From Candidatus Obscuribacteraceae bacterium (lineage in GTDB: Bacteria; Cyanobacteriota; Vampirovibrionia; Obscuribacterales; Obscuribacteraceae), in NCBI GenBank assembly GCA_044226015.1, contig JBGAHS010000003.1, positions 704,001 to 768,000 on the forward strand: a stretch of 64,000 bases of DNA. Reading direction: 5' to 3'. Of this stretch, positions 4,314-34,286 are shown in pieces. Both the position numbers and the translations under genes were made by a program. The number at the start of each line of letters is the position of its first letter. Within the stretch, counting starts at the first letter, position 1. The notes under the pieces are model-generated. The model ran no database searches and was not told where the DNA came from. It saw only the letters and a list, made by a program, of their open reading frames with translations.

Positions 4314-5303
4314 ATGCATGTACCAATCTTTCTTCATCCGGTCGTCGGCATCGCGACTGGACTCATCGGGCTCGGAGTACTCTGGGCTCGAAGCAGAAGG
4401 CAGCCCGCAGTGCAGCACTCACAGGTCGGTATCCACACCAACCTGCGAAGCTTCCCACTGGTCGGCTGGCTGCCTTCGTTGTTCTACCTCTGCCTCATCG
4501 CTTCTCTGTCCGGGCTGCTCGCCTGGCCTGTGTTCAAAGAAAGCGTTGAGCAGCGGCACGTCGAAACGCGGGATGTCCTGCTGAGCGTTGACCAATCGGG
4601 TTCGATGGGTGGCGCGATTCAGGCCGGCCCTCCGCAAGACCTCAACTGGCCCCCAGACAAAGGAACATTCCGGCGACTGGACCTGGCACAATACGCAGTG
4701 CAACTGTTCGTCTCAAAGCGAGCTGGTGACCGCGTCGGTCTCACTGTCTTCGACGACAAGACCTATCGGCACTACCCGATGACAGACGACTTGAAGATCA
4801 TCATCCGTAAAGCCGAGTTGATCAGCAAGAACACCGGCGGTGGCACCAACTTCGAAAGTCCTACCGGACCAATCGCCACAGCCATCGAGCACTTCCGAAC
4901 CTGGGGCAAAGCCAAAACCAAAGTCCTGATTCTGGTCACGGACGGTGAAGCTCCAATTTCAGATGAGCGGATGGCCGAGCTCGTGAAAGAGATGAAGGCT
5001 GTCGGCGGAAAAATCTATGTCCTCGGCATCGGTGAGGACTGGACTAACCCGTCGGACTTCACGAGCAGCCAAACTGAACCACTCCGCAAGATTGTCGCAG
5101 CCCTCGGTGGCAAATGTTTCGCTGTCGGAGACGCGAAGCAAATGGCAGAGGCGCTATCGGTGGTCGATCAACTCGAAAAATCGCAGGTCGTGCTCGAGCG
5201 CAGCACGGTCTACCAGGACGCCTACCAGTACTTCGCTGCGGCGTCGGTTCTTTCTCTTCTCCTGCTAGCCGCGTCGGTGCTCGTCACCCGCGAGCTGGTC
5301 TAA
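4314..5303 (+). CDS. vWA-domain membrane protein, BatA-like (operon copy 1)
   Basis: MIDAS DQSGS, DRVGLTVF, GGGTN, LILVTDG, N- and C-terminal TM segments; RBS GGAG before ATG 4314. Confidence 0.9.
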   Translation: MHVPIFLHPVVGIATGLIGLGVLWARSRRQPAVQHSQVGIHTNLRSFPLVGWLPSLFYLCLIASLSGLLAWPVFKESVEQRHVETRDVLLSVDQSGSMGGAIQAGPPQDLNWPPDKGTFRRLDLAQYAVQLFVSKRAGDRVGLTVFDDKTYRHYPMTDDLKIIIRKAELISKNTGGGTNFESPTGPIATAIEHFRTWGKAKTKVLILVTDGEAPISDERMAELVKEMKAVGGKIYVLGIGEDWTNPSDFTSSQTEPLRKIVAALGGKCFAVGDAKQMAEALSVVDQLEKSQVVLERSTVYQDAYQYFAAASVLSLLLLAASVLVTRELV

Positions 5304-5322
5304 CCAAAAGGAGCCTACACCT

Positions 5323-5958
5323 ATGAAAATGTTCAAGAAATGGCGCCAGCTCACCGGGCTGGTGCTCGCCGCAGTGCTTGGAGGCGTGCTGCTCTTCGGG
5401 TCGAGCAAACTCAACTCGTGGGAGTCGCCCCAGGTCATTGCCTACAACCATGGCATCGCTGCTATGAAGGAAGGCAAGGTCGATGAGGCCATGCTTGCCT
5501 TCGACAAGAGCCTCGATGCCTACGCATCCATGGCGCAACGAGAGAGCACGGAATCCAAGCTCTACCCGAGCCGTTCCACTGAACTCGCTGCGCTTGCTCA
5601 GAGCAAGAAAGCGATTCTCTACCTGATGAAGCAGAAGCCCGAACTCGCGGTGAAAGCTTTCAAGGAGAGCATCCAACTCAACCCGGGAAGCATTGAAAGC
5701 GAGCAGCTGAGCCAGCTGTTCGTGGACGAACCGCTTACCAGCAACGACATCAGTCGCCTGAGCGACCAGTCCAGCGTGGTCAAACACAACCTGGAGCTGT
5801 TGTTCAAGAAGAACCAATCTCTCGCACAGGGCGAAGGGAAAGGCAAGGGCAAGGGCAAAGGCAAGCCCGGCGACAAAGAAGGAAAAGAAGGAAACGAGCC
5901 AGCTCCGGGCAGCAAACCTGGTCCTGGTTCCGGCAAGAGCAACCCTAACGCCATCTAA
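5323..5958 (+). CDS. TPR-like membrane-anchored protein, BatC-like, with G/K/P-rich tail
   Basis: N-terminal TM, YNHGIAAM...FDKS and AVKAFKESIQLNP TPR-like helices, HNLELL followed by a low-complexity tail. Confidence 0.75.
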   Translation: MKMFKKWRQLTGLVLAAVLGGVLLFGSSKLNSWESPQVIAYNHGIAAMKEGKVDEAMLAFDKSLDAYASMAQRESTESKLYPSRSTELAALAQSKKAILYLMKQKPELAVKAFKESIQLNPGSIESEQLSQLFVDEPLTSNDISRLSDQSSVVKHNLELLFKKNQSLAQGEGKGKGKGKGKPGDKEGKEGNEPAPGSKPGPGSGKSNPNAI

Positions 5959-5977
5959 CTGGCAGGAGGAACAAGCC

Positions 5978-7033
5978 ATGCATTTTACTCACATGGAATT
6001 TGCCTGGCTCGCTCTCTTGCTGCCAGTTCTGGGCGCGGCGCTCTACGCCGGGCACAAGCTGCGCATGCAAGCAAAGCGAGTTTACGGCACAGAAAACCTG
6101 CTGGAACGCTTCCAGCAAACTCAAAAACGCACGCTGCCGAGCTGGATCCACATGCTCGGTATCTTCTGCGTGGGTGCTTTACTCGTCATCGCTGCGATGG
6201 GTCCGACAACGAACCTGACCAAGCAGCGCGTCTCAGACGGCTCGGTGCAAGCCGTAGTCGTCCTGGACGTTTCTCGCTCTATGGCTGCTGAAGATTATCG
6301 GGAATCGATGCCAGCTGACGCTGGACAGAAACCCGACCTGAATCAGCCCTGGGGTAGCCGACTCGACATGGCGAAGTACCAGATTCTCAAAGTGATGCAA
6401 TCGATTCAGGGCAACCAGTTGGGCATCGTCAATTACGCCGAAAAGGGCTTCCCTCAGGCGGACTTGACCCCCGACTTCACTGCTCTGGATTTCATTGTCA
6501 GAAACTGGGTGACTCAGGGAAATGCACCGGGCGAAGGCTCGCACTACGACAACGGCATCAACGAAGCGCTCGAGATGTTCAAGCGCGATGCTGACCCGTC
6601 TAAAAAGAAGGTGCTCATCCTCATGTCTGACGGCGGCTTCGACGGGAAACCGGACGAGCTTGCCAAAGTCGTTGAGGAACTCAACAAGCAAAACGTGAAG
6701 GTCGTTATCATCGGACTCGGCATGCCGGGAGCCAACGCTATCCCCATCTATGTGGACGGCAAGCTCACGGGCTACATGAAGGCTGAGGACAAAGTGATCA
6801 CGACCTCTTACGAGGAAGACAACCTGCGTCAGCTGGCTGCGATGACGCACGGGTCGTACCACCACGTGGACACGACTCCTGGCAGCCAAAAAATCGCGAT
6901 TGACTGGAGCAACGAAGTTGGTGGTTCGCGCATTGAAATGCGCGGTACGCCGCTTTTCCCTTACTTCGGTGGGGCGGCGCTCGGTCTCGCGGTGATTCTT
7001 TCCATTGCCGGTTTAGTGCGCAAGAAGGACTGA
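5978..7033 (+). CDS. vWA-domain membrane protein, BatB-like (copy 1)
   Basis: MIDAS LDVSRSM, SRLDMAK, LILMSDG, two N-terminal and one C-terminal TM segments. Confidence 0.9.
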   Translation: MHFTHMEFAWLALLLPVLGAALYAGHKLRMQAKRVYGTENLLERFQQTQKRTLPSWIHMLGIFCVGALLVIAAMGPTTNLTKQRVSDGSVQAVVVLDVSRSMAAEDYRESMPADAGQKPDLNQPWGSRLDMAKYQILKVMQSIQGNQLGIVNYAEKGFPQADLTPDFTALDFIVRNWVTQGNAPGEGSHYDNGINEALEMFKRDADPSKKKVLILMSDGGFDGKPDELAKVVEELNKQNVKVVIIGLGMPGANAIPIYVDGKLTGYMKAEDKVITTSYEEDNLRQLAAMTHGSYHHVDTTPGSQKIAIDWSNEVGGSRIEMRGTPLFPYFGGAALGLAVILSIAGLVRKKD

Positions 7034-7160: not shown

Positions 7161-8195
7161 ATGACTGCTAACACCATCATCAACCCGATCAGCCGCACCC
7201 TGACCCAGGTCCGCAAGGTCGTCATCGGTTACCCGACCATGACCGAACTCGTGGCCTACGCTCTCTACGCCGACGGTCACGTCCTTCTCGAAGGTCTGCC
7301 CGGTCTGGCCAAAACGGTGACGGCTCGCGGCTTCGGTCGCGCCATCGAAGGCGCCGAATGGTCCCGTATTCAGATGAAGCCCGACATCCTGCCGTCCGAC
7401 ATCGTCGGTGCGGAAGTCTTCAGCAAGAAGACGCAGGAATTCAGCGTCCGCAAGGGACCGATCTTCGCCAACATCGTCCTGGCGGACGAAATCAACCGTG
7501 CTGCTCCTCGCTCGCAGTCGGCTCTGCTGGAAGCCATGGCGGAAAAGAGCACCTCGCTCGCCGGTCAGACCTTCCGCATGCCCGACCTGTTCTGCGTGCT
7601 CGCCACCATGAACCCGATCGAGCAGGAAGGTACCTACCCGCTGCCCGAAGCGCAGCTGGACCGCTTCCTCTTCAAGGTCACGATGGGCTACGCTCCTCGT
7701 GATGCTTACAAGGCGATGCTGAACAACCAGAAGACGCTCAAGGGCAGCGACCCGCACAAGGACATCGTCGCGGACGTGACGGTGAACGAAGTGCTGGCTG
7801 CTCGCGCCGCCATCAACGAAGTGCACGTCAGCTCTGCCGCCCAGGACTACATCCTGGACTTGGTGGATGCCAGCCGTCCGTCGGACCAGATGTTCACCAA
7901 GTTCGTCTCGCTGACCGGTGCCGAAGGCAAGAAGTTTGCCGAAGCGGTGCAGGTCGGTGGCTCGCCTCGTGCTTACCAGGCTGTTCAGATCACCGCACAG
8001 GTGCGCGCCTTCCACATGGGCCGCAGCTTCGTGCTGCCGGAAGACATCCAGTACGTCGCTGGCTCTGTGCTCCGTCACCGCCTGATCCTGAACCGCAAGG
8101 CTCGCATGGACGGCAAGTACACCACGGACGATGCCGTCAAGGCGCTGGTCGCCGGCGTGCCGTTCCACAACAACCTGGCTGACTACCAGGGCTAA
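7161..8195 (+). CDS. moxR: MoxR-family AAA+ ATPase (copy 1)
   Basis: GLPGLAKT Walker A, LADEINR Walker B, NPIEQEGTYPLPEAQLDRF, GGSPR, VLRHR. Confidence 0.95.
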   Translation: MTANTIINPISRTLTQVRKVVIGYPTMTELVAYALYADGHVLLEGLPGLAKTVTARGFGRAIEGAEWSRIQMKPDILPSDIVGAEVFSKKTQEFSVRKGPIFANIVLADEINRAAPRSQSALLEAMAEKSTSLAGQTFRMPDLFCVLATMNPIEQEGTYPLPEAQLDRFLFKVTMGYAPRDAYKAMLNNQKTLKGSDPHKDIVADVTVNEVLAARAAINEVHVSSAAQDYILDLVDASRPSDQMFTKFVSLTGAEGKKFAEAVQVGGSPRAYQAVQITAQVRAFHMGRSFVLPEDIQYVAGSVLRHRLILNRKARMDGKYTTDDAVKALVAGVPFHNNLADYQG

Positions 8196-8350: not shown

Positions 8351-9292
8351 ATGAAAACACAGACCGAACTGGAGATTGAAAACATTCTCCAGCGCATCGC
8401 GTTCTGCGCTATTCCGATCAACTGGAAGTCGGAAAACCCGATGCCCGGTGTCGGAGAGCGCAAGAGTCGCTATCGCGGTCCGGGGGCTGACTACGTGGAG
8501 TTCGTGCCATTCGAAGATGGTGACGACCCACGCCACATCAACTGGGCAATGACGGCACGCGCTACCGATGACGATGTCATCTGGCGTACCGTTCATCAGG
8601 AAGAGAAGGAAATTCGGAGCGTGGTGCTGGTGAAAGCCGGCCACTCGATGGATTTCGGCACGGTGCGCACGACCAAGCGCCACGTGGCTGCGGAGATGGC
8701 TGCGTCCATCTACTTCGCGCTGGACAAGACCCGTGACAAAGCGGGGCTCATCTTGTACTCGCGTGATGCCGTACTTCAGGACCTGCCTTGCCGTCAGGCG
8801 ATGAGCACCCTCTACCCTGCGCTGGAATCAATCATCGAATGCGACCCTTACGCACCCACTGCAATCGAGCAGCAAGGTGACGGGTTGTCTAAAGCGCTCA
8901 GCGGATTGCCGACGCAACGCTCGCTCGTCTTCATCGTCTCCGACTTCGAAGACATGAGTGAGAAAGACTGGCGTGAACTGGGCAACGCCGCTTGCTATCA
9001 CGACGTGGTCTGCATCTACGTGCAAGACCGTCGTGAGCGCGAGCTTCCCCCACTGCCGGGCATGCTCGGCTTCCTGGGCTGCTTCTACCGGATTCAGGAC
9101 TACAGCGGCCGCTCTCGTCTCATCTGGAATAACGCCCGCACCCGCCGTATCTACAGCGACAACTTCAAGAAGCACGAGGCGAAAATCCTCTCTGCTCTGG
9201 AAGAACGTCTCTGCCAGACGATGGTTGTGAGCACCGAAGAGGGCGATGCAGCCATCCCCAAAATCCTCGACCTGTTCACAGGTCACTGCTGA
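8351..9292 (+). CDS. DUF58 family protein (MoxR-associated, vWA-like; copy 1)
   Basis: GADYVEFVPFEDGDDPRHINW, SMDFGT, FIVSDF, HDVV; immediately follows moxR. Confidence 0.9.
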   Translation: MKTQTELEIENILQRIAFCAIPINWKSENPMPGVGERKSRYRGPGADYVEFVPFEDGDDPRHINWAMTARATDDDVIWRTVHQEEKEIRSVVLVKAGHSMDFGTVRTTKRHVAAEMAASIYFALDKTRDKAGLILYSRDAVLQDLPCRQAMSTLYPALESIIECDPYAPTAIEQQGDGLSKALSGLPTQRSLVFIVSDFEDMSEKDWRELGNAACYHDVVCIYVQDRRERELPPLPGMLGFLGCFYRIQDYSGRSRLIWNNARTRRIYSDNFKKHEAKILSALEERLCQTMVVSTEEGDAAIPKILDLFTGHC

Positions 9293-9303: not shown

Positions 9304-10341
9304 ATGAAAAACAACAAATTCCTTTCTATGATGTTCGCCGCCCTCTTCGCGATTGGGTTCTTCGCCGCTGGCAACAGCCCGGCGATGGCCCAGTCGGAAG
9401 ACGATGGCTTCCCGTTTCCACCGCAGCAAGAAGCTGCGGCTCCGGCGCCCCAGAACCCGATGGTCAAGTCGATGGACTCGGGGCGCCTCATCATCGCCGT
9501 CGGTTCACCGCGTAACTTCGGTTACCGCATCGGCGACCTGATTCCCGTGACGATGGTGGTGTCCGCGGACAAGAACGTGCAAGTCAACCTCGAAGCGATT
9601 CGTCGCAAGACGCTAAGCTCGGAGGGCTCGGACTTCGAACTTGTCGGGGCACCATCGGTAGTGCAAGAGCAGCAAGGTGAGAAAACCATCTGGCGCGTGC
9701 AGCTCTTACTGCGCAGCTGGGTAATCAAACCGGTGCTCGTGTTCAACTGCGACTTCCACTTCGCCAGCGAGCTGCTGCCCGACGGTAAGACCCCCAACTG
9801 GCGGCCGGTCAGCTCACCTGACTTTGTTGTGGAGATGTCAAACATCGCTACCGAAGCAGCAAAGGAACTGCTGCCCGGCGACATGGACTTGAAGGAGAGT
9901 CCTAAGCCGGCGCTGGTGCAACCGCTGAAATATGCGGGTTATCTGGCGTTCTCGCTGCTGCCTGCATGGTTGCTCTGGCAGCTCTGGTGCCGCGTGCGTC
10001 CGCGTCGCCCGGTGACGACAGCTGAACGCGCCTGGATGGAGTTCGATCAGGTCATGGCAGATGCACAGTCTGCTGGTGGTCTGAAGTACGAACACCTCTT
10101 CCGTATCTCGGGCACTTTGCGCAGCTACCTGTGCATCGAAGCTGTACCGACTTCGGAAGTGGCCATCCCGCTTGAGCAGTTCTTCTCGATGCATGATGAC
10201 CGCCTCGAGCTGATGACCATCACGGTCAGTGCACTCTCCAAACTGGAACGCGCTCTCTACAGCAAGAGCGAACTCACCAGCGAAGAGCAGTTCACTCTGA
10301 TGCGCGAAATCGAGCGCATCGTGCCACGACCGCTCAACTAA
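9304..10341 (+). CDS. Exported protein with C-terminal TM, BatD/DUF4381-like (copy 1)
   Basis: Signal peptide, GYRIGDLIPVTM beta domain, TM at YAGYLAFSLLPAWLLW, cytoplasmic helical tail; usual position after DUF58. Confidence 0.7.
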   Translation: MKNNKFLSMMFAALFAIGFFAAGNSPAMAQSEDDGFPFPPQQEAAAPAPQNPMVKSMDSGRLIIAVGSPRNFGYRIGDLIPVTMVVSADKNVQVNLEAIRRKTLSSEGSDFELVGAPSVVQEQQGEKTIWRVQLLLRSWVIKPVLVFNCDFHFASELLPDGKTPNWRPVSSPDFVVEMSNIATEAAKELLPGDMDLKESPKPALVQPLKYAGYLAFSLLPAWLLWQLWCRVRPRRPVTTAERAWMEFDQVMADAQSAGGLKYEHLFRISGTLRSYLCIEAVPTSEVAIPLEQFFSMHDDRLELMTITVSALSKLERALYSKSELTSEEQFTLMREIERIVPRPLN

Positions 10342-10541
10342 CCAAGACGAACGAGACGCTAAGAATCGTTCAATACCGCAACAGGGGTCCTCGGTAATTC
10401 ACTGAGGACCCCTGAGCTTTTCCCGAGTCAGCATCGAGCCAGAGTCCTCGCACCAAATGCGGTGCGGGGACTCTGGCGTTTCTCTGGAGTTTTTATCCCG
10501 CGACAGTCAGTCGCAACACCACTAGATTGGAGAGAATCCAA

Positions 10542-12059
10542 ATGAAAAAGACACTTTTGAGCTTTATTGCTCTCGGCGCGTTCGCCGTCGGCAGCATCTT
10601 CTACACCGCCCCGGTGAACGCTCAAGCTCCCGCAGGCGGTCCTGTCATCAACAGCCCGGCGGCACCACCTCCGGTGGCGAAGCCCCAAGCGGCGTTCGAT
10701 GGTCCGTCCCTCTACAAGGCTGCCTTCGAGCAGATCCGTGACTTGCACATCGAACTCAGCACTCCGGAGAAGGTCGCCGCCTTCACCAAGGAGTGGGAAC
10801 ATAAGTTCGACCAGACCGGAGAACTCAAAACTGAGGAAGGCACTGACAAAGCCATTCTCAAGATGATGCAGTCTCTCGGTCAACGCTTCGACTACAGCTT
10901 CGACAAGGAAGCCACCCAAGCCGAAGCCAACCAGGTCGACGCCACGCTCATCGGCATCGGCGCGACGATGAAGCTGAACAAGCTTGCCGAAATCGTCAAG
11001 TCACTGCCGAAGGACTCGAAGCCTGAGGACGTGAAGAAAGCAATCGCCATCAGCAATGAGAACCACTTGCTCATCGAAGAGCCTCTGGAAGGTGGACCTG
11101 CTGAAAAGGCAGGGTTGAAGCCTGGCGACATCGTCCGCAAGGTCGACGACAAAGACGTGAACGGCATGCAAATGACTGAAGCCATCAAGTCCATCAAGGG
11201 CAAGGAAGGCACCTCAGTCAAGCTCACGATTGAACGAACGACTGATGGCAAGACTGAAACCCTGGATGTGACTGTCGGTCGCGCCAAGGTGACGGTTCCG
11301 GATGCAACGTTCAAAGACCTGGGCGACGGCATGTCCTATGTCCGTCTGCGCGACTTCATGTCGAAAAACGCCGTCAAGGAAATGAATGACGCACTGAAGA
11401 AGGCAGCTAAGGGCAAGGGTCTCATCCTCGACCTGCGCGGTAACCCCGGCGGTAGCCTGACGGCTGTCCTGACGATGTGCGGCATGCTCATGGAAGATGG
11501 TCCGATTCTTGTGACTCGGTCTCGCAACGGTGACCGCATCACCGAAGAAGAAATCGTTCTGAACAAAAAGTTCGTACAGAACATTTCTCCGTCCGCCAGC
11601 GACCCCAACAACCTGGAAATCTCGGCTGGTCCTCGCACCAAGCTCATCATCCCCGCCGACATGCCCATCGTGGTGTTGGTTGATGAGGGCTCGGCAAGTG
11701 CTTCCGAAATTCTCTCGGGTGCTCTGCAACACAATCACCGCGCCACCGTTGTCGGCATGCCGACCGTTGGTAAGGGCGTTGGTCAAACCGTAGTGAAGTT
11801 GCCCTTCGGCCGCAGTCTCCATGTCACGAGCTTTGAATTCATCCCCGGTCGTACTCCCAACGACTGGATCGGTGTGATTCCCAACGTCAAAATCGAGCGC
11901 GGCGAAGACCCCAAGGTCGACGCTCAACTCGACAAGGCGAAGGAACTCATCGTTCCGATGATAAAGGCAGTGGAAGACACGCGCACTCAGCGCGACGAAC
12001 AACTCAAGAAGCATCATGAGGAGTTCGAGAAGGAACTGAAGGAACGCAACAAGAACTAA
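10542..12059 (+). CDS. S41 (CtpA/Prc-like) carboxy-terminal processing protease with PDZ domain
   Basis: Signal peptide, PDZ (PAEKAGLKPGD), LDLRGNPGG, catalytic SASASE and GKG. Confidence 0.92.
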   Translation: MKKTLLSFIALGAFAVGSIFYTAPVNAQAPAGGPVINSPAAPPPVAKPQAAFDGPSLYKAAFEQIRDLHIELSTPEKVAAFTKEWEHKFDQTGELKTEEGTDKAILKMMQSLGQRFDYSFDKEATQAEANQVDATLIGIGATMKLNKLAEIVKSLPKDSKPEDVKKAIAISNENHLLIEEPLEGGPAEKAGLKPGDIVRKVDDKDVNGMQMTEAIKSIKGKEGTSVKLTIERTTDGKTETLDVTVGRAKVTVPDATFKDLGDGMSYVRLRDFMSKNAVKEMNDALKKAAKGKGLILDLRGNPGGSLTAVLTMCGMLMEDGPILVTRSRNGDRITEEEIVLNKKFVQNISPSASDPNNLEISAGPRTKLIIPADMPIVVLVDEGSASASEILSGALQHNHRATVVGMPTVGKGVGQTVVKLPFGRSLHVTSFEFIPGRTPNDWIGVIPNVKIERGEDPKVDAQLDKAKELIVPMIKAVEDTRTQRDEQLKKHHEEFEKELKERNKN

Positions 12060-12153
12060 GTTTCTCGTGCTGAGACCGCAAGGTCTCGAACTCAACCAGG
12101 GGAGCCAGCATTGGGCTGGCTCCCCGTTTTTCTTTCACAGGAGATTCTGTTTT

Positions 12154-13737
12154 ATGAAAATCACAACTGCAATCGCCGCTCTGCTGCTGACCCTGAGCAT
12201 GGGCACTGCCAATGCGCAGGTCCCGCAAGACGAGAGCCTCGCGCCGCCGTCTCAGGAGAACAACAAGCCCGCTGTGACGATGCCTCAGCAGCAGGCAGAG
12301 CCGACCGAAGACGAAGACGAAGAGATCATCATCATTCCCGGACCCAAAATCGGCAAGCCGGGCAAGCCGCAGATGACACCTGCGATGTTCGAGATGCTCT
12401 ACCAGGCTGTCTGGGCGAAGGTCGGCAAGGAATATCAGGACCCCTACAAGCTCAACGAATGGGCGTCCTGGCAGAACAAATACAAGGGCAAGCTGAAGAC
12501 GCCGGAAGACCTCGACGCAGCCATCAAGGACATGCTCGGCAGCTTGAAAGACCGCTGGACCGTTTACTACGCACCTAGCGACCTGAAGGCCCAAGAAAAG
12601 GCGCACAAGGAAGGCATGCTCAGCGTCGGCATGCTCGTTCGCAAGCACAGCGACAACCTCTGGCACATCGACAACCTCTCCTTCAACTCGCCAGCGATGC
12701 TGTCCAAGTTGCGGGAAGGTGATGTGATCAAGTCAGTCAATGGCAAGCAACTCGACACGCTCAACGCCAGCCAGGTTTCCGACCTGCTCAAAGGCAAGGA
12801 AGGGGAGAAGCTGGCCATCGTTGCGGTGATGGATGGTGCAGAGCAAACCGTCGAGTTGACATTTGCACCGCAAGGTGAGGATGAAGTCGCGCTTGGTATG
12901 CTTCCCGGCAACATCCTGTACATTCGGCTGCCCACCTTCGTTTCGGAAGAGACGGTAGGCGAGTTCATGCAGGCGCTGGGACAGGCCTGGGAAGCGTCGC
13001 AAGGACAAATCAACGGGCTTGTCTTCGACTTGCGTTACAACTCGGGGGGGCTGGTGACCATGGCACTCTCGGTCTCGTCGGCGTTCCTTGAGAATGGCAC
13101 CGTGACTGCTACCACGACTCGGCAGGACCGCAGCGTTCAGGAGACTCGTTACAACGTGATTCCTGTGCCGCATTACCTTGAGTCGCGAATGCCGAAGGAC
13201 GCGGCGATGTTCACACACTTCCTGCAGACGGTACCAATGGTGGTGCTGACCAACGGTTCAACTGCAAGTGCTTCGGAAATCACCACCGGTGCTCTGAAGG
13301 ATAACGGACGAGCCTATGTCATCGGAACCCACACTTTCGGAAAAGCAGTGGGCTACACTCGGGAAGGAATGCCGAACGGTGGGGTGCTGCAGGTCACAAA
13401 CCTCAGCTATCTCACGCCGAACGGTTCCAACATCGCAGACAAGGGCATCATGCCCGACAAGGTTGTGAACCAACCTCGTGGTCAAGCCATCATGGGTGAA
13501 AACGACGAGCAACTGCAAGCCGCTCACGAGCATCTGATGAAGATTGCCGTTCAGCGTGCTAAGCAGCTCGCCGACGCTCAGAAGCTGTCCACGAAGGGAC
13601 ACACCGATGTCGACGCAAAGAAGTCCGCGCCATTTGTCTGGCATCCGCTGTACATCCTACTTGCCACTGTCGGCGGTAGCTCTGTACTGCTGCTTGTTCT
13701 CTTTGGCGCAAGCAAGCTGAAGCGCAGCAAGCGCTAA
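12154..13737 (+). CDS. S41 protease with PDZ domain and C-terminal TM anchor
   Basis: Signal peptide, DLRYNSGG, TASASEI, TFGKA, C-terminal hydrophobic helix plus KLKRSKR. Confidence 0.9.
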   Translation: MKITTAIAALLLTLSMGTANAQVPQDESLAPPSQENNKPAVTMPQQQAEPTEDEDEEIIIIPGPKIGKPGKPQMTPAMFEMLYQAVWAKVGKEYQDPYKLNEWASWQNKYKGKLKTPEDLDAAIKDMLGSLKDRWTVYYAPSDLKAQEKAHKEGMLSVGMLVRKHSDNLWHIDNLSFNSPAMLSKLREGDVIKSVNGKQLDTLNASQVSDLLKGKEGEKLAIVAVMDGAEQTVELTFAPQGEDEVALGMLPGNILYIRLPTFVSEETVGEFMQALGQAWEASQGQINGLVFDLRYNSGGLVTMALSVSSAFLENGTVTATTTRQDRSVQETRYNVIPVPHYLESRMPKDAAMFTHFLQTVPMVVLTNGSTASASEITTGALKDNGRAYVIGTHTFGKAVGYTREGMPNGGVLQVTNLSYLTPNGSNIADKGIMPDKVVNQPRGQAIMGENDEQLQAAHEHLMKIAVQRAKQLADAQKLSTKGHTDVDAKKSAPFVWHPLYILLATVGGSSVLLLVLFGASKLKRSKR

Positions 13738-14188: not shown

Positions 14189-14237
14189 ACCGGTGTAGTT
14201 CCAGCAAGGTGCTAAACACACACTGCTGAGGCAAGAG

Positions 14238-14273
14238 AAAGTGGCGCAGAGCGAAAGCTTTGCGTCACTTTTT
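14238..14273 (+). terminator. Intrinsic terminator ending operon copy 1
   Basis: AAAGTGGCGCAGAGC-GAAA-GCTTTGCGTCACTTTTT. Confidence 0.85.
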
Positions 14274-26094: not shown

Positions 26095-27177
26095 ATGTTC
26101 AAAATGATCAGAAAGTTGACTCTGGCGCTGTCGTTGGCTGCACTCTCTTTCGCGGGAGTCGCATTCGCCGATGACAGCAGCTCGAAGCTCCCCGAACCGG
26201 TTTCGCCGGAGCGGGGCGCTGTCGTCGACGGGCGTGTCAACGTCTACATCGGAACGCCGCGCGTCAATGCCTACGGCATCGGCGACAGCATTCCGGTGAC
26301 GCTCGTCTTCGAGATGATTCCACCCAAGCCGGAGGAGCTCAACAGCACCCCGGCTGCTCCTACCCCCGAAGCTTCCAAGCCCGGCGAGCCCATCAAGGCA
26401 CCGGAGAAGAAGCTGCTGCCGATGCCGCGCATCGATGTCGAAGGTCTTCTCATGCAGGTTCAGTCTGCTGAGAAACTCGATGTCGACATGCTCGGCGGCG
26501 CCCAAGAGGTGCAGCGCTACACGCGCGACGGCAAGGAATATCTGCGTGTGGTGTTCTACGTCTGGACCTTCGTCACGACGAAGCAGACCCAGGTCGACGT
26601 GAAGGCGGACTTCATGTACGCCTATCAGGCCCTGGAAGACGGAACGCCCGACTGGAAGAAGGCAAGCTCGCCAACCATCCACGTCGGCATCCGCAAGACC
26701 GCCGCAGACAACCAGACCAGGATGCGCGAGGGTGACCTCACGCTGAAGGCGAGCCCTCGGGTCGCCGCAGCGCCGTACGCCCTGGTCGGCGGTGTTCTGC
26801 TTCTGCTGCCGCTCTTCGGCGCGCTCGCCTTGACCGGCTACCGCCGCTACATGGAGCCCAAGAAGCTGAACGCCAACGAAAGTGCCTGGGCCGAACTCGA
26901 CGCCATCTTCAACGAGGCGGCGAAGTCTGGCTACAACATCGACGTGTACAAGAGCATCTTCTTCGTGCTGCGCCGGCGCTTCAACGTGCTGGCTCTGGAC
27001 GGCAAGGAACTCTTCGCTGCAGTCAAGGCGCACCCGGACCTGGCGTCGGCTCAGTTCAGTGACATCGAAGCGGTCTTCGGCATGGAAGCCATCTTCTACG
27101 CCAAGAACGCCCGCGTCACCGACGAGCAGAACCTGGCATTCGTGGAGGGCATCAAGAAGCTCATCCCGCGCCACTAG
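26095..27177 (+). CDS. Exported protein with C-terminal TM, BatD/DUF4381-like (copy 2)
   Basis: Signal peptide, YGIGDSIPVTL, DGTPDW, GDLTLKASP, TM; paralog of 9304-10341. Confidence 0.7.
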   Translation: MFKMIRKLTLALSLAALSFAGVAFADDSSSKLPEPVSPERGAVVDGRVNVYIGTPRVNAYGIGDSIPVTLVFEMIPPKPEELNSTPAAPTPEASKPGEPIKAPEKKLLPMPRIDVEGLLMQVQSAEKLDVDMLGGAQEVQRYTRDGKEYLRVVFYVWTFVTTKQTQVDVKADFMYAYQALEDGTPDWKKASSPTIHVGIRKTAADNQTRMREGDLTLKASPRVAAAPYALVGGVLLLLPLFGALALTGYRRYMEPKKLNANESAWAELDAIFNEAAKSGYNIDVYKSIFFVLRRRFNVLALDGKELFAAVKAHPDLASAQFSDIEAVFGMEAIFYAKNARVTDEQNLAFVEGIKKLIPRH

Positions 27178-27236: not shown

Positions 27237-28832
27237 ATGAGAAAGATCATCTCAGGCGTGCTTGCCGCGACTCTCATGTCCGGCAGCATGCTTTTCTCGG
27301 GCGGGCAGGCTCTGGCTGCGGCACCGTATTGCCAGGCACTGAACCCGCAACCCGACACCCCGGAAGCTGCCCAGTTCTTGCAGCTCCTCAAGCAGTCGAG
27401 CGACCCCCATGTGGTCGCCGCGCAGATTCTCGACAAGGTCGCCCCGCTGCCGCCCGAAGCGCTGCAGCAGATCTACGACGAGACCTTCCAGTTCCTCGTC
27501 AACCACTACATCGACGACAGCAAGCTGGAGCACTTGAAAGAGTACCAGCATAAATATGATGGGAAGATTCAGACGCGCAAAGACCTCGAGTTGGCGCTGA
27601 AGGATCTGACCACGTCGATGGGCGACCGCTGGACCTGGTCGAAGGGCGCCTCGGACACCGTCAAGAGTGTCATGATGGCAATCTCGAAGCAGGTCAACTT
27701 CGGCATCAGCTTGCGCAAGCAGGATGATGGCAGCTTCAAGATCGAGGCGATGATGTACGGCTCGACGGCTCAGGCTTCCGGTCTGCGCGAGGGCGACACC
27801 GTTCTCTCGGTCAACGGGCGTGAGCTCAAGGGTCTCGACAAGGACACGGCGGAAGCCCTGCTCATCGGACCCATCGGCAACTCGCTCAAGGTGACCAGCA
27901 TTCAGGACGGCAAGACGGTGGAAGCCAGCTACACGCTGAGCGCCCCCGTGCCCAACGATGCCGGCGCCAAGCTGCTCGAGAACAATCTCGCCTACCTGAA
28001 GTTGCCCAACTTCATGAGCGACGAAGACTTCCAGAAGCTCGTCGGCTCCATGGGCGATATGGCTGCCACCACCCCCGGTGGTCTCCAGGGCATCGTGCTT
28101 GACCTCCGCTACAACGGCGGCGGTCAGGTCGAGATGGCCAAGACGCTGATTCGGCTGCTCATGTCGGAAGGCGTCGTGATTCAGGAGCTGGCTCGCGATG
28201 GTCGCGACCAGACCGAAACGAAGCTGACGCTGCGTCCGTACAACAGCATGGACACTCTGAAGTATCCGCCCAAGGTTATGGAGGTGCTGCAAGAGCTGCA
28301 GAAGCTTCCGCTGGTCATCCTGGTCAACGGCTCGTCCGCTTCGGCAGCGGAAATCACGACCGGCGCGCTGATGGACAGCCGTCCGAACACGCTGGTCATC
28401 GGTGAGCAGACCTTCGGCAAGTTCACCGAAATGCTGATGCAGGAACTGCCGACCTGTGGCAGCATCGCCGTCACCTCTGGGCGTTACACCACGCCCGACG
28501 GCAAGTGGCTGCAGAACGCCGGCATCACGCCGAACGTCATCGTGCATCAGCCGCGCGGCTCTACGGAAGACGCGCAGATGAAGGCGGCTATCGACTTCCT
28601 CGAGAAGAAGACCGCTTTCAACCCGGCCAACGTGGTGCAGAAGCCCGTGGACACGAAGGAATACTTCGGTCCCGTGCCCGCGCGCCCCGAGCCGCCCCAG
28701 GCCGACACCGACTATGTGCAGCTGGCGCGGGAAAACCGCACGTTGCTCATGCAGGTCGGCGTGGGTACGTTCCTGTCCGCAATTCTCGGCATCTTCCTGC
28801 TGCTCTCGCGGCGCCGGAAGGACGAGAAGTAA
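27237..28832 (+). CDS. S41 protease with PDZ domain and C-terminal TM anchor
   Basis: DLRYNGGG, SASAAEI, TFGK, C-terminal hydrophobic helix plus RRRKDEK. Confidence 0.9.
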   Translation: MRKIISGVLAATLMSGSMLFSGGQALAAAPYCQALNPQPDTPEAAQFLQLLKQSSDPHVVAAQILDKVAPLPPEALQQIYDETFQFLVNHYIDDSKLEHLKEYQHKYDGKIQTRKDLELALKDLTTSMGDRWTWSKGASDTVKSVMMAISKQVNFGISLRKQDDGSFKIEAMMYGSTAQASGLREGDTVLSVNGRELKGLDKDTAEALLIGPIGNSLKVTSIQDGKTVEASYTLSAPVPNDAGAKLLENNLAYLKLPNFMSDEDFQKLVGSMGDMAATTPGGLQGIVLDLRYNGGGQVEMAKTLIRLLMSEGVVIQELARDGRDQTETKLTLRPYNSMDTLKYPPKVMEVLQELQKLPLVILVNGSSASAAEITTGALMDSRPNTLVIGEQTFGKFTEMLMQELPTCGSIAVTSGRYTTPDGKWLQNAGITPNVIVHQPRGSTEDAQMKAAIDFLEKKTAFNPANVVQKPVDTKEYFGPVPARPEPPQADTDYVQLARENRTLLMQVGVGTFLSAILGIFLLLSRRRKDEK

Positions 28833-28904: not shown

Positions 28905-30152
28905 ATGGTCAATCGCAAGCTCGTTGCGGTCTGCCTGACGACGATCTCCATCCTGGGAGGCGCGCTGGCATACTGCTTCATCGGCGGCAACGCCGAAGGT
29001 CCCGACGTGAGGGACATGCTCAATGCGCCCAAGACGCGCATGCAGATGAACTTCTACGGAGCGGCTAAGACCGACTCCGGCAAGAGCGTCAGCGGGCTGA
29101 GCATCGGCTACGAGTACTACGACGATGCCGGAAAGCATCTGCGCAGTGCTCTGGAATACGAAGACGGCGCCACGGAAGACGTGTTCTACCGTGCCAACGG
29201 CACAAAAGACTGGAGCCGCGATTTCTACGCGGCTGCCGGCTCAGAGCGCGCGATTCTGCGCTCCAACGCCTGGTTTGCAGCAGACGGCAAGACCTACATC
29301 AAGCACGATGTCTATCATAAGGATGGCAGCATCGAGCGGCAGGGTCGCCTTCTGGCTGATGGGAAATATGAGCAGACGTACTTCTGCGCCGATGGCAAAA
29401 CCATTCAGCGCCAGCAGCTCTTCGGCTCGACCAGGAACTTCCTGTCGGAAAAGGCAATCTTCTGCGAGACGGGCAAAGCGATTCGCTCGGTCGAAGACGG
29501 CGAGTACGGCTCGAAGATTCTCACGCTCTTCCGCGAGGATGGCAGCATTGCCTCCAAGCAGACGATGCATGATGGCAGCGAATACGGACCCTTCTACACC
29601 GGTGACAGCTTCGACAAGGACGGCAAAATCGTCCTGCACTTCGAGCATGGTCCGTTCCAGAAAGAGGTGCAAACCCTGAAGGACGGCAAGCCGGATATGA
29701 AGTGGCTCGACGTGACTTACTACACCTACAAGCGCGAAATCTCGCGCCTCAATCCAGCCGACCCGAAGAAGAAGGTCTGGACACAGACCATAATGCCCGG
29801 CGAAAAGTACAGCCTGGATAACGGGAAGCTGAGCGTCATCACCGAATACGATGGCGAAGGAAAAGTCACCCGTGTAATCGAGATGAACGAGAACGGCAGC
29901 AAGCCGGCTCGCATCATCGTCTCGACTGCCGACGACAAGAAGAAGCTCGTCCACTACCTGGGCGATGACGGCAAAATCGTCAAAACAATGCTGCGCGACG
30001 ACAAGGACAAGAGCGAAACCCCGCAGGCGCTGCCCGCGGAGCTCGACTCGAAGATTCCCGTCGAAGAGCTGCAGAGCTACGCAAGACCGAGTTCTCCCGA
30101 ATGGGACGACGGTAACACGTCGACTAGCGACAAGGTCTACGACTTCCACTGA
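28905..30152 (+). CDS. Membrane-anchored beta-hairpin repeat protein (MORN-variant/YwqK-like), paralog A
   Basis: N-terminal TM, recurring (Y/F)xxDG turns. Confidence 0.7.
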   Translation: MVNRKLVAVCLTTISILGGALAYCFIGGNAEGPDVRDMLNAPKTRMQMNFYGAAKTDSGKSVSGLSIGYEYYDDAGKHLRSALEYEDGATEDVFYRANGTKDWSRDFYAAAGSERAILRSNAWFAADGKTYIKHDVYHKDGSIERQGRLLADGKYEQTYFCADGKTIQRQQLFGSTRNFLSEKAIFCETGKAIRSVEDGEYGSKILTLFREDGSIASKQTMHDGSEYGPFYTGDSFDKDGKIVLHFEHGPFQKEVQTLKDGKPDMKWLDVTYYTYKREISRLNPADPKKKVWTQTIMPGEKYSLDNGKLSVITEYDGEGKVTRVIEMNENGSKPARIIVSTADDKKKLVHYLGDDGKIVKTMLRDDKDKSETPQALPAELDSKIPVEELQSYARPSSPEWDDGNTSTSDKVYDFH

Positions 30153-30290: not shown

Positions 30291-31679
30291 ATGAAACGCA
30301 CAACTGCAATTTCCTGCCTGGTGCTCGCCTGTCTTGCCGGCGTCACCACGGCAGCCTTGCAGGTTCGAACTCCTGCTCCGAATTCCGGACCGGACCTGCA
30401 AGACATGCTGAACACGCCGAAAACTGCGATGCAAATGCAGCTCTACTCGGCGAACCGCGACCCTGCCACAGGCAAGAGCGTCAGCGGCAAACAGCTCGGC
30501 TACGAGTACTACAAGAACGACGGCAAGACGAAATATCGCGCGAAGAACTTCTTCGAGAGCGGAGCAAGCGAAGAGCTCTACTTCCGCGATGACGGCAGCC
30601 TGGAAAAGGCTTTCGAATACTTCCCTCCCGTTGATGATGCCCCCGCCATTCTCAATGGCGCGGCGTCCTTCGAAGCTGACGGCAAGACCTACAAGAGCCA
30701 CCTCGTCTACAACGACAAGGGGGTTCGCGTGCGTCAGGGTCAGCTGCTCAGCTCAGGCGAATACCGGCAGACCTACTTCTGCGCCGATGGTTCCCGAGCA
30801 GAGAGCGAGCGCCTCTTCAATGCGAAGAAGGAGTTCGTCTCGGAGAAGCTCTACGACTGCTCCAACGGGCGGCTCATCGCCGAAATTCTGCCCAGCACTT
30901 ACTACGGGCAGCTGAAGGTTCTGCTCTACCGTGCCGATGGTACGCTCAAGGCAGACACGCTTCGCGACTACCAGGGCATCGGCGGCGTCGTCTACGACGT
31001 TGACGGACAGACCATCCTCTACGAATTCCGCGACGAACTCAGCTCTCGGTCGGTGAAGAAATTCACTCCCGACGGCAAGTTGATCGAGGAGTCGGCAAGC
31101 TCTTTCGGGCGCACCAGAATTGCCACGTACAATCCGACCACTGGCAAGCGAATTCGCTACCAGGAATGGAAAGAACGTCCTGGCGAGAATGGCGGTCCGA
31201 AGAAGCTTCTGCTGAGCCAGGTCACCGAGTACAATGACGACGCAGAAAATTCGCCCACGCGCGTGATCGAGATGAGCGGCGACGGCAAGTTGCCCGCCAG
31301 CGTCTCCATGCCGCTTCCGGCGAGCGTCGACCTCAAGTCGCTGACCCTGCCGAAAGTAGAAGGCGGGTTGGAGCAGCTCGAGAAGCTACGTTCGCAGATG
31401 AATCTCGTCAAGACGTTGGCTCCGGACGGCACGGTCACCAAGACCGAGCTGACCATCAACTACCAGTCCTGGAACAACACCGTGCAGCCGTCGACTGCAA
31501 CCGAGCGAATTTCTATCGACCCGCAGCTGCTCCGCATGCCGCAGGGTCAGGTGGATCTGCCGCAATTCGACAAGCTCGGTCCTGACCGGGTCTACGATTA
31601 CGGAACCAACGACAACCCCAACTCCTGGCCGACCACGTATCAGCAACGGTACATGGGCTACGGGATGGGCGGTCCGTAA
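30291..31679 (+). CDS. Membrane-anchored beta-hairpin repeat protein, paralog B
   Basis: Shares GPD..DMLN.PKT.MQM, GKSVSG..GYEYY, QTYFCADG and D.VYD with paralog A. Confidence 0.7.
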   Translation: MKRTTAISCLVLACLAGVTTAALQVRTPAPNSGPDLQDMLNTPKTAMQMQLYSANRDPATGKSVSGKQLGYEYYKNDGKTKYRAKNFFESGASEELYFRDDGSLEKAFEYFPPVDDAPAILNGAASFEADGKTYKSHLVYNDKGVRVRQGQLLSSGEYRQTYFCADGSRAESERLFNAKKEFVSEKLYDCSNGRLIAEILPSTYYGQLKVLLYRADGTLKADTLRDYQGIGGVVYDVDGQTILYEFRDELSSRSVKKFTPDGKLIEESASSFGRTRIATYNPTTGKRIRYQEWKERPGENGGPKKLLLSQVTEYNDDAENSPTRVIEMSGDGKLPASVSMPLPASVDLKSLTLPKVEGGLEQLEKLRSQMNLVKTLAPDGTVTKTELTINYQSWNNTVQPSTATERISIDPQLLRMPQGQVDLPQFDKLGPDRVYDYGTNDNPNSWPTTYQQRYMGYGMGGP

Positions 31680-31750
31680 AGCTCCTTCCTCAACAGGGTG
31701 ACCCAAGGTCACCCCTTATCTTCAACTCAGAGCTCATAAGGAGATTACCA

Positions 31751-32392
31751 ATGAGCAAGCAGAAAACTGTTCCGCTCTGGAGGAAGATCCTCTGGAGAGG
31801 GGTTGTGTTCCCCGTGTTCGCGCTCGGCATTCTCGCGGCCGGCAGCGTCGCCTATCTCGGCGGCATCACCGGTGGTGACAGCAACACCGTCCACAACGTC
31901 GTCGTCCTCGACGCGTCCAACGCCAAGTCCACCCAGGCCCAGATGCAGGCTGCTGCGCAGTCCGGCAAGCTGGTCTTCATGGAAATCTGCGACGGCGAGT
32001 TCTGCGCCGGTCAGACGGCCGAACTCGACAAGGTCGCCGAGAAGTACAAGGACAAGGTCTTCTTCGTGCAGGTGAAGCCCTCGCAGGTCGCGCCGCTGCT
32101 GCCGAAAATCGCGCAGCTGACGGGCGGTCGCCTGGCCTTCCCGATGCACTTCATCGACACCGGCAAGATGCCGCTGGTCGACGTGGGCATCAAGACCGCC
32201 GACGAACTCGACAAGATGGTCGAGGTCGCCCTCAAGGTCAAGTCTGGCGAAATCCAGATTCAGTCGGCGCCCAGCAGCGACGACACCGCGCCGGCCAACA
32301 AGGACGGCGATGCTTCTGCCAAACCCGAGACGCCCGCCAAGAAGGACGATGGCGCTCTCCCCGCAACCACGACTTCGCCCAACGGCAAGTAA
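31751..32392 (+). CDS. Membrane-anchored thioredoxin-fold protein with CX4C motif
   Basis: N-terminal TM; KLVFMEICDGEFC..Q..ELDKVAEKYKDKVFFVQV; AFP cis-Pro loop. Confidence 0.75.
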   Translation: MSKQKTVPLWRKILWRGVVFPVFALGILAAGSVAYLGGITGGDSNTVHNVVVLDASNAKSTQAQMQAAAQSGKLVFMEICDGEFCAGQTAELDKVAEKYKDKVFFVQVKPSQVAPLLPKIAQLTGGRLAFPMHFIDTGKMPLVDVGIKTADELDKMVEVALKVKSGEIQIQSAPSSDDTAPANKDGDASAKPETPAKKDDGALPATTTSPNGK

Positions 32393-32423
32393 GTCGAACT
32401 GATATCCTGAAGGAGTCACTACA

Positions 32424-34286
32424 ATGTTGACCAATCCTGGCCTCATTCTGCTCGTCGTCGGTCTGCTCGGACTCGCCGGCATGTTCTGCTTCAACGACAA
32501 GTTCCGCAAGGAGCTCGGTCGCACCGCGTTCAAGTGGCGCTGGATGTTCCTCATCCCCGCCAGCATCTACGCCGTCACCTCCATCTTCCTCGGCGTCGGC
32601 ACCACCAACTCCCTCGTTCCCGGCGCCCTCGGTGCCGTCCTGCAGATCGTCATGATGATGTTCATGATGGTCATCCAGTGGGTCGCCATGATGTGGATCA
32701 TGGCGCGTCCGAAGATCGACTGGTACATGCCGGGCGAAACCCTGGACAACCTGACCTGGGACGACTACGTCGGCAACGACGAGATCCGCGACAAGATGAA
32801 GGACCTGATGGACTTCCTGCAGGACCCGGACAAGTTCCGCGCCAAGGGTGCGAAGCTGCCGAAGGGTATCCTGATGCGCGGTGAGCCCGGCGTCGGCAAG
32901 ACCTACCTGGCCCGCATCATCGCCAACGAAGCCGGCGTTCCGATCGCCATCTGCGAGTCGAGCTCGATGCAGAGCCCGTTCGTCGCGGTCGGCGCCCTCA
33001 TGGTGAAGTCGCTCTACAAGAAGCTGCGCAAGCATGCTCTGACCTACGGTTCCGCCATCGTCTTCTTCGACGAAATCGATGCGATCGGCATGAGCCGTTC
33101 GCGTCAGGGTGGTGCTGGTGCTGCCATGTCCTTCATGGGTGGTGGCGCCGGCGGTGGCATCCTCAACGCGCTGCTCGGCGCGATGGATGGCATCAACTCC
33201 AACGAAGGCTTCATCGCCAAGACCGCTCGCCGCTTCGGCCTGCACAAGGCAAAGCCGGCCAACGCGACCGTCATCACCATCGGCGCCACCAACGCTCCTC
33301 TGGAAGCGCTGGACCCGGCTCTGATCCGTGAAGGTCGTCTGGACTGGAAGATCACCGTCACCTCCGCCGGTGACGAGGGTCGTGAGCAGCAGATCCGCTA
33401 CTTCCTCGGCAAGCGTCCGCACGACGAGTCCGTCGACGTGAAGGACCTGGTCTCGGACTTCCGTGGTGAGACCCCGGTCGCCATCGACACCTCGCTCAAC
33501 AACGCCATGATCCGCGCCATCCGTGCGGGTCGTGAGAAGATGAACTACAACGACGTCATCATGAGCCTCTGGGACCGCAACTTCGGCCTGCCGAGCCCCA
33601 TCACTCTGGGCGAGCTGGACAAGGAGCGCGTCGCCTACCACGAGGCTGGTCACGCTCTGGTCGCTGCTCTCTGGCCGATGACCGGCTGGAGCTGCTGGGG
33701 TGCGAGCATCCTGCCCCGCGACGGCGCCCTCGGCATGGTCATCACCAAGCCGTTCGCCGACGTGCACACCAACACCGAGGAAGACCTGTCCCGCCGCATC
33801 CTGCTGTCGGTCGCGTCCCGCGCGGTGGAGGAGCTGGTTCTGAAGATCAAGATGAACGGCTTCTCGGGCGACCTGCAGTCCGCGACCACGGTTGCGGTGC
33901 ACATGCTGTCGACCTACGGCATGGGCGAAGACCTGATCTCCTTCTCGGCGATCGGTCAGCAGACCTCGCCGGAAGTGCTCGCGCACGCCAAGCTCATCGT
34001 CAAGGCTCACCTCGAGCTGGCGAAGGAGCTGGTGACCGAGAACAAGGCCTGCGTCGAGGCGATCGCCAAGGGTCTGCTCGCTGAGCGTGACCTCGACGGC
34101 CACGCCGTGCGCAAGATCGCCGAAGCCACGGCGGTCACTTCCAAGGACATCGAAATCTGGCCGCGTGCGGCTGCGATCATCGAGCGTCTCAAGGAAGAGG
34201 CGAAGGCCAAGAAGGTGAAGGAGCGCATCGAGTTCGCCAAGGCCCTCAAGGCCGCCGGCGCCGATGACGCTTCGCTGCTCGGCTAA
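32424..34286 (+). CDS. ftsH: FtsH-type ATP-dependent zinc metalloprotease (AAA plus M41)
   Basis: GEPGVGKT, FFDEIDAIG, LDPALIREGRLD, AYHEAGH, RAVEE, SGDLQSAT; a divergent paralog rather than necessarily the housekeeping FtsH. Confidence 0.9.
   Translation: MLTNPGLILLVVGLLGLAGMFCFNDKFRKELGRTAFKWRWMFLIPASIYAVTSIFLGVGTTNSLVPGALGAVLQIVMMMFMMVIQWVAMMWIMARPKIDWYMPGETLDNLTWDDYVGNDEIRDKMKDLMDFLQDPDKFRAKGAKLPKGILMRGEPGVGKTYLARIIANEAGVPIAICESSSMQSPFVAVGALMVKSLYKKLRKHALTYGSAIVFFDEIDAIGMSRSRQGGAGAAMSFMGGGAGGGILNALLGAMDGINSNEGFIAKTARRFGLHKAKPANATVITIGATNAPLEALDPALIREGRLDWKITVTSAGDEGREQQIRYFLGKRPHDESVDVKDLVSDFRGETPVAIDTSLNNAMIRAIRAGREKMNYNDVIMSLWDRNFGLPSPITLGELDKERVAYHEAGHALVAALWPMTGWSCWGASILPRDGALGMVITKPFADVHTNTEEDLSRRILLSVASRAVEELVLKIKMNGFSGDLQSATTVAVHMLSTYGMGEDLISFSAIGQQTSPEVLAHAKLIVKAHLELAKELVTENKACVEAIAKGLLAERDLDGHAVRKIAEATAVTSKDIEIWPRAAAIIERLKEEAKAKKVKERIEFAKALKAAGADDASLLG

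Follow-up and report, generated by a model that had tools for sequence, protein, structure and literature searches.

A swapped bat/mxa-type gene core linked to S41 proteases in Obscuribacterales

A 64,000-nucleotide stretch of an 8.2-Mb Obscuribacteraceae genome (contig JBGAHS010000003.1; the whole stretch is termed the window, and all its coordinates count from its first nucleotide) carries two diverged copies of a gene cluster in which a MoxR ATPase operon of the Bat/Mxa kind is followed directly by genes for PDZ-containing S41 tail-specific proteases. We designate the six core genes C, K, L, R, S and A after the Mxa proteins whose positions they hold, and both copies read vWA (C), TPR (K), vWA (L), MoxR (R), DUF58 (S), A and then S41. 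The order recurs in dozens of related genomes and is therefore not due to chance; judged by gene neighbourhood, the S41 link is conserved within the Obscuribacterales lineage. Because the operon nearly always precedes protease genes of its own, chaperone and protease likely act jointly on envelope proteins. We tentatively favour a mechanism in which a MoxR-driven VWA/TPR complex in the membrane passes envelope proteins to its own S41 proteases for trimming or removal. All component families are known; the new variant consists of a six-gene core with its halves swapped, S41 clades dedicated to that core, and satellite clusters lacking the ATPase. Searches of the open-access literature, subscription journals lying outside this scope, found no report of a MoxR–S41 operon or of such a cluster from Melainabacteria.

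Composition and ancestry of the six-gene core

All 19 genes proposed by the initial annotation were recovered, all co-directional, in the open reading frame (ORF) list and a Pfam scan; start codons, chosen from the translations, are all ATG. Pfam assigns VWA, TPR, VWA, AAA_3 (MoxR), DUF58, no family, and S41 with PDZ to the successive genes of both copies, which bears out the proposed two-copy order. The sixth gene, A, had been labelled BatD-like. Pfam and NCBIfam scans gave it no family, and its structure model (mean pLDDT 87.9, 35 sequences) runs from an N-terminal helix through a beta-sandwich and one long helix to a C-terminal domain made of helices; a fold search returned only generic beta-sandwich matches. 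A relative of A from another phylum (L125) had a single plasmid match, in Methylobacterium bullatum (E 0.08), to a gene lying between DUF58 and the first vWA gene of a methanol dehydrogenase cluster, relatives of which are named MxaA; in an ESM Atlas search with A, the third entry was an 'MxaA protein' cluster. In profile–profile comparison, A matches MxaA at 96.9% over 238 columns and the Parabacteroides hypothetical gene preceding batA at 95.6%. The match to BatD is only 8.3%, and the BatD label is rejected. A four-sequence BatD profile, positive in bat loci, found nothing in the called proteome of the host or in Obscuribacterales loci. Comparison with one short DUF4381 protein sequence likewise gave no match (1.7%).

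The remaining genes show the same double affinity. By profile–profile comparison, C matches BatA (99.9%) and MxaC (99.0%), and L matches BatB (99.9%) and MxaL (97.3%), with PDB 3ibs as the best solved relative of L. K, a protein of about 200 residues in which Pfam finds one TPR and whose N-terminus carries a membrane helix, matches BatC (96.6%); the single MxaK sequence tried matches at only 0.7%, although it occupies the same position and is TPR-like. The BatA-, BatB- and BatC-like proteins score below the Leptospira-specific NCBIfam cut-offs. Most MoxR proteins of these clusters group with bat MoxRs (support 0.93), nearer to bat than to MxaR, and they retain the Walker and arginine-finger motifs in aligned columns. 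The metal-ion-dependent adhesion site (MIDAS) motif DxSxS is kept in 92 of 93 C and 94 of 95 L proteins and in only 8 of 55 DUF58 proteins. Neither R nor S has membrane helices, and A is predicted to span the membrane with one domain exposed on either side. In C and L, the layout of two plus one helices is that of the BatA homologue BB0173 of Borrelia, whose vWA domain has been shown to face the periplasm (PMC5700661).

Profile matches to BatA, BatB and BatC and the MoxR tree thus support the bat-type ancestry initially assigned. The bat gene list (moxR, DUF58, hypothetical, batA–E) is taken from PMC7500135; MoxR and DUF58, the BatA and BatB vWA proteins with their MIDAS, the BatC TPR and the gene before batA are all matched here. 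On this profile evidence, bat (R-S-A-C-L-K-D-E) and mxa (R-S-A-C-K-L) have one six-gene core in common. Since A matches MxaA and the pre-batA gene rather than BatD, the cluster is this bat/mxa core with its halves swapped and BatD lost. Relative to the bat order R-S-A-C-L-K, the genes here run C-K-L-R-S-A, BatD is absent, and S41 genes occupy the place of batD and batE; the genomes also hold several paralogous clusters, some of them lacking the ATPase. The gene maps show no seventh core gene, no BatE profile having been searched. The likeness to mxaRSACKL extends to the same six positions and the same C-K-L block, with homologues of MxaR, S, A, C and L; here, however, the halves are swapped and the neighbours are proteases. 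All six Mxa proteins are needed to load Ca2+ into periplasmic methanol dehydrogenase, whose gene lies in the same cluster, and how the cytoplasmic MxaR and MxaS act on a periplasmic enzyme is, according to the same source, an open question (PMC12276312).

The closest relatives outside Obscuribacterales are R-S-A-C-K-L clusters of sediment bacteria from another phylum (L125, L141 and eight metagenome loci). Their A proteins score 81–84 bits and K matches at 97.7%, K being undetected in one; they have no BatD match. Their order is unswapped, and S41 adjoins none of the ten loci. The permutation emphasized in the initial annotation is thus conserved among relatives but less unusual than supposed, as vWA-TPR-vWA is the mxaCKL order and clusters of the same family in another phylum run R-S-A-C-K-L.

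Linkage of S41 proteases to the core

Gene A was detected in 20 of 36 genomes of the same family, in 1 of 3 from another family of the order and in 0 of 21 from the rest of the class; of 300 additional genomes of the phylum, only 6 gave weak matches, all to its C-terminal half. Alignments of A and C were too diverse for locus scans, and the range estimate therefore rests on L. Scanning one genome per species with the L alignment yielded 198 candidates, 143 of them confirmed; the best 80 of the 143 were used as loci, and 64 of these 80 are titled Obscuribacterales, Melainabacteria or related cyanobacterial labels. Gene maps cover these 80 loci and 40 of the 42 distinct regions from the gene A search. 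The clusters compared are kin of one order, selected by likeness to copy 1 in the window. Their 116 A genes reduce to 100 at 99% identity, of which 57 follow DUF58, 42 follow L and 1 is unplaced. Among the 57, the next gene is S41 in 44 and another gene in 8, 3 lie at contig edges and 2 are of the R-S-A-C-K-L type; counts of 'full clusters' (n=52) refer to those with A after DUF58 and downstream sequence present, the R-S-A-C-K-L type being excluded. Downstream sequence is present for 36 of the 42 C-K-L-A clusters, the other 6 being at edges.

S41 is next to A in 44 of 52 full clusters and in 0 of 36 C-K-L-A clusters, one of which (L047) has R-S-A further downstream; when clusters are merged at 70% identity, these counts become 32 of 40 and 0 of 24. 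The linkage proposed from the window alone, which its absence from other genomes was to have contradicted, is thus widespread among relatives. All 44 linked clusters hold true S41 proteins (lowest 300 bits): 32 have two, 11 have one and 1 has three. Weak 'S41' matches of 16–30 bits, none among the 44, came from PDZ domains in RseP, DegP and a nuclease-like protein and were discarded. The window S41s score 143–214 against TIGR00225, under its cut-off of 218.6, and contain PDZ and S41 domains; their N-terminal hydrophobic stretches, found by sequence reading and a hydropathy scan, may reflect export to the envelope. The Ser–Lys dyad is intact in all three and in 71 of 78 linked S41s; 1 is truncated and 6 have lost one residue. 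The six proteins without catalytic Ser or Lys (L050, L084, L043, L038, L127, L144) are possible pseudo-proteases; that they are still kept beside the core fits a binding role.

In a FastTree phylogeny of 77 of 99 S41-like proteins, the linked S41s fall into three groups, all separate from four CtpA-like genes of the host: a clade without anchor (support 0.993), one anchored at the C-terminus (0.982) and a small degenerate one. The anchored clade also includes two S41s upstream of a core and one host-type gene. This gene in the S41b clade (G000 C11:433881-435257) has host-type codon use and no anchor, and is perhaps a relocated copy. Across 17 thinned two-protease clusters (median identity about 40%), S41 distances track those of L, A and R with rho 0.49–0.75, against 0.70–0.76 between core genes; the correlation shows joint inheritance, not co-evolution. 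Other neighbours are less constant, the best being present in 12 of 23 clusters upstream and, counting real genes, in 7 of 33 downstream.

The L (vWA2) tree, which kept 78 of 97 rows, places C-K-L-A clusters in three separate clades, corresponding to at least three origins. One is nested among S41-bearing clusters (support 0.999) and is without both MoxR–DUF58 and the two S41s, which lie on opposite sides of A; in the sister of a second, loss of the downstream S41 had already taken place. Among the 8 full clusters in which A is not followed by S41, 1 has FtsH next, 2 have a rhomboid protease as second gene and 1 has S41b just upstream on the other strand. FtsH, proposed as a further component on the strength of copy 2, is in the fetched locus of only 6 of 52 full clusters and is a minor partner. 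A MORN-like family occurs in 10 of 52 full and 8 of 36 C-K-L-A clusters.

Chaperone–protease coupling and alternative readings

In the mechanism that we tentatively favour, MoxR and DUF58 would act in the cytoplasm, and protein A, its two predicted domains lying on opposite faces of the membrane, would transmit the ATP-driven step across it. The two MIDAS vWA domains may hold the client, and K, or the C-terminal anchor of S41b, may tether the protease to the complex. The C-K-L-A copies, which lack the ATPase, would then be client-specific modules borrowing motor and protease in trans. We infer the direction of coupling, with the chaperone feeding the protease, by analogy: in S41 proteases such as CtpA and Prc, activation and delivery require TPR adaptors, and LbcA–CtpA and NlpI–Prc resemble the present arrangement in pairing a PDZ-gated S41 with a TPR protein as possible delivery partner (PMC8764530). 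LbcA and NlpI, however, are outer-membrane lipoproteins with 4–11 TPRs, whereas K combines one or two TPRs with a membrane helix at its N-terminus, and the loci described here add an ATPase and vWA proteins.

Several observations weigh against this hand-off. All of its support is gene context from one order, and the 44 linked clusters descend from few ancestral events; outside the lineage, S41 does not stand beside homologous R-S-A-C-K-L, bat or mxa clusters. In both studied precedents, mxa and ripA, the adjoining enzyme is a client, not an effector. The proteases might likewise be clients, which the machine folds, activates or assembles after export, for example into an S41a/S41b oligomer; we consider this somewhat unlikely. 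Besides mxaF (PMC12276312), its precedent is the mycobacterial ripAB-moxR1-DUF58-vWA locus, where moxR1 comes after ripAB, MoxR1 binds RipA and the MoxR–DUF58–vWA operon constantly adjoins exported peptidase genes (PMC12067865). That peptidase is an NlpC/P60 client exported by Tat, and the three-gene core is described without a TPR or MxaA-like gene (PMC12067865). Two of the bat clusters fetched adjoin arylsulfatase genes, and exported proteins of other kinds, among them amidases and MORN-like proteins, are encoded beside C-K-L-A copies. One MxaF query found no MxaF-like gene in the host genome (92% complete), and the S41s are the only constant, presumably exported enzymes beside the core. S41 proteases, though, work by a Ser–Lys dyad and are not known to need a metal, whereas the Mxa set inserts Ca2+. 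Moreover, four CtpA-like proteases of the host do without any such cluster, and replacement by FtsH or a rhomboid in three clusters fits a shared proteolytic theme better than a single type of client.

The link could also be passive, an S41 pair having landed once behind the operon in an Obscuribacterales ancestor, within a protease-rich, foreign-looking block, and then been copied without shared function, a reading that we likewise consider somewhat unlikely. In its favour, besides the confinement to one lineage, 8 of 52 full clusters lack an adjoining S41, and the 12 of 23 clusters sharing an unrelated upstream gene imply that neighbourhoods persist among kin. The cluster genes, moreover, belong to a set rich in G+C at third codon positions (GC3), in which 13 of 114 scanned genes (those of at least 140 residues in the regions fetched) are proteases or peptidases, so that a protease neighbour is not rare there. 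In copy 1, two strong hairpins also lie upstream of S41a, and the S41a/S41b gap holds a hairpin with a T-run that is the stronger terminator-like site. Hairpins occupy most gaps, however, including that between MoxR and DUF58 in copy 2 (z -5.6), and are therefore not by themselves operon ends. Transcription stopping before S41 had been raised at the outset as a point against the linkage; a crude scan found no conserved terminator, with a hairpin and T-run in only 2 of 44 A-to-S41 gaps, but copy 1 is one of the two. Further, S41 linkage survives to about 40% identity while other neighbours turn over, and S41 loss accompanies MoxR–DUF58 loss across a retained A gene. That the S41s instead regulate the machine by binding or clipping the exposed C-terminal tail of K (or C), and so control its assembly or turnover, seems very unlikely. 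The flexible tail of K ends in a hydrophobic residue in 41 of 41 S41-linked clusters (39 Ile or Leu; genome background 9%), and the signal classically recognized by Prc is a non-polar, unconstrained C-terminus (bioRxiv 10.1101/2020.03.31.019315). Yet clusters without S41 keep this ending just as strictly, with 24 of 24 deep C-K-L-A clusters and 12 of 12 R-S-A-C-K-L clusters checked (2 genome and 10 metagenome loci), and BatC ends in Trp; the tail as an S41-specific signal is rejected, and its conservation beyond the linked clusters also tells against the hand-off. As the ending predates the S41 link, the tail more likely binds inside the machine, where the free C-terminus of K, conserved in every cluster type checked, may dock.

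In its fullest form, the hand-off would make the cluster an ATP-driven periplasmic degradation machine, a functional counterpart of ClpXP for a compartment that lacks ATP, in which the MoxR motor acts through the MxaA-like protein and vWA grips to feed S41a and S41b, C-K-L-A modules set client specificity, and the whole belongs to a gene set of foreign composition, rich in proteases and lipases, with which Obscuribacterales may digest prey or dead cells; this version is improbable. The clients and mechanism of Bat-type MoxR–VWA operons are largely unknown, and S41 offers a constant, assayable partner enzyme. The profile matches are evidence for one six-gene core in bat and mxa and make the MxaA-like protein a candidate membrane coupler, while ATPase-less and protease-less copies are natural deletions that separate the modules. 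Were the hand-off true, it would add an energy-coupled route to envelope proteolysis.

The two copies and their surroundings

Table 1. Features of the two clusters in the window.
Feature	Position	Strand	Remarks
Copy 1 C, BatA/MxaC-like vWA	4314..5303	+	2 N-terminal and 1 C-terminal membrane helices; MIDAS DxSxS intact
Copy 1 K, BatC-like short TPR	5323..5958	+	N-terminal membrane anchor; flexible G/K/P tail, last residue hydrophobic
Copy 1 L, BatB/MxaL-like vWA	5978..7033	+	Three membrane helices; MIDAS intact
Copy 1 R, MoxR AAA+ ATPase	7161..8195	+	Walker A/B and arginine-finger motifs kept
Copy 1 S, DUF58, MxaS position	8351..9292	+	Membrane helix absent; MIDAS degenerate
Copy 1 A, MxaA/pre-batA homologue	9304..10341	+	Predicted signal peptide, beta-sandwich, membrane helix, helical C-terminal domain
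Two strong RNA hairpins, A/S41a gap	10382..10477	+	Second with weak T-run
S41a, PDZ tail-specific protease	10542..12059	+	N-terminal hydrophobic signal; C-terminal anchor absent; Ser–Lys dyad kept
Terminator-like hairpin with T-run, S41a/S41b gap	12099..12125	+	
S41b, PDZ tail-specific protease	12154..13737	+	C-terminal membrane helix; dyad S372/K397
Small basic gene 3' of copy 1, no known family	13838..14188	+	Followed by terminator-like site 14234-14275
Copy 2 C, BatA/MxaC-like vWA	20954..22069	+	
Copy 2 K, BatC-like TPR	22083..22664	+	
Copy 2 L, BatB/MxaL-like vWA	22678..23805	+	
Copy 2 R, MoxR ATPase	23868..24944	+	Pfam, MoxR tree
Copy 2 S, DUF58	25068..26084	+	Pfam
Copy 2 A, MxaA-like	26095..27177	+	
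Copy 2 S41, S41b type	27237..28832	+	C-terminal membrane helix; dyad kept
Exported (predicted) protein, no known family	28905..30152	+	Weak MORN-like lead; 35% identity to following gene
Second exported (predicted) protein, same family	30291..31679	+	
Membrane-anchored CxxxxC protein	31751..32392	+	Thioredoxin fold possible, unconfirmed
Divergent FtsH-like AAA+ zinc protease	32424..34286	+	Three N-terminal membrane helices; HEAGH; followed by terminator-like site 34353-34383

The two copies are 23–39% identical (vWA1 26%, TPR 32%, vWA2 33%, MoxR 39%, DUF58 29%, A 23%), the copy 2 S41 being 33% identical to S41b of copy 1 and 27% to S41a. They fall into different deep clades of the vWA2 and MoxR trees, which excludes a recent tandem duplication; with the low identity, this indicates old paralogues in tandem. 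The tandem recurs, with the same regulator gene between its copies, in another genome of the genus. In one relative (L053), a copy-2-like core carries a copy-2-type S41 together with a copy-1-type S41a (70% identical), which points to exchange among paralogous clusters. A third host copy outside the window (C6:400.7-404.3 kb) comprises C-K-L-A only, without MoxR, DUF58 or S41; a small membrane protein follows it (L156:8606-14285 = G000 C6 398.6-404.3 kb, minus strand), and in relatives a holin-like protein with four transmembrane segments or an amidase often follows clusters of this type.

As initially described, copy 1 has two S41s and copy 2 has one, followed by four co-directional genes ending in FtsH. 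The first two of these, annotated as repeat proteins, are a paralogous pair, but their repeat nature has only the weak MORN-like lead. The thioredoxin-like label given to the third found no confirmation: it has no Pfam match, a 7% thioredoxin profile match, a model of pLDDT 43.5 and CxxxxC rather than CxxC. The FtsH retains its membrane anchor, AAA+ domain and HExxH zinc site (Pfam AAA+M41) and scores under housekeeping FtsH (TIGR01241 262.9 vs cut-off 600), with 31% identity to a host FtsH. In another locus (L088:1-4735), a MoxR–DUF58 pair without A is followed directly by the CxxxxC protein and FtsH, with a full cluster downstream.

Small basic genes follow both copies (13838-14188 and 34681-35037) and are identical at 74 of 116 residues, far above the core genes; relatives of this gene also lie near clusters in several related genomes. 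Between the copies, 15147-15713 (minus strand) encodes a stand-alone HD-type phosphohydrolase, weakly RelA/SpoT-like. At the window start and divergent from copy 1 (window 1-1235, minus strand; G000 C6 698.7-705.2 kb), a gene for a 1050-residue protein without known family is followed by several similar genes for small membrane proteins.

The cluster genes have GC3 of 0.68–0.88, against 0.42–0.52 for translation GTPases, on which ground codon bias from high expression was rejected as the source. With a rough caller, 234 of 6021 ORFs are of the GC3-rich type, 147 of them on the contig of the window, in mosaic with host-type genes. A phage origin was also rejected: 39 candidate stretches of viral contigs held no vWA2 relative, viral contigs gave 8 distant S41 matches (26–32% identity), and a PHROG search with A, K, repeat and small genes found no match. 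The mosaic spans G000 C6 about 390-853 kb (including the window), C9 1-60 kb, C8 714-735 kb and C1 1140-1287 kb; it may represent a large foreign element that has been absorbed in part, or a toolkit for feeding. Its proteases include M4, M48, M50, TldD/E, FtsH, ClpX-like and S41 types. About 20 of the 114 scanned genes encode lipid-degrading or lipid-handling enzymes, and three paralogous lipid cassettes (acyl-CoA dehydrogenase, AMP-binding, enoyl-CoA hydratase, acyltransferases, patatin) are present. The mosaic also holds SPFH pairs, a serpin and PrkA-YeaH-SpoVR.

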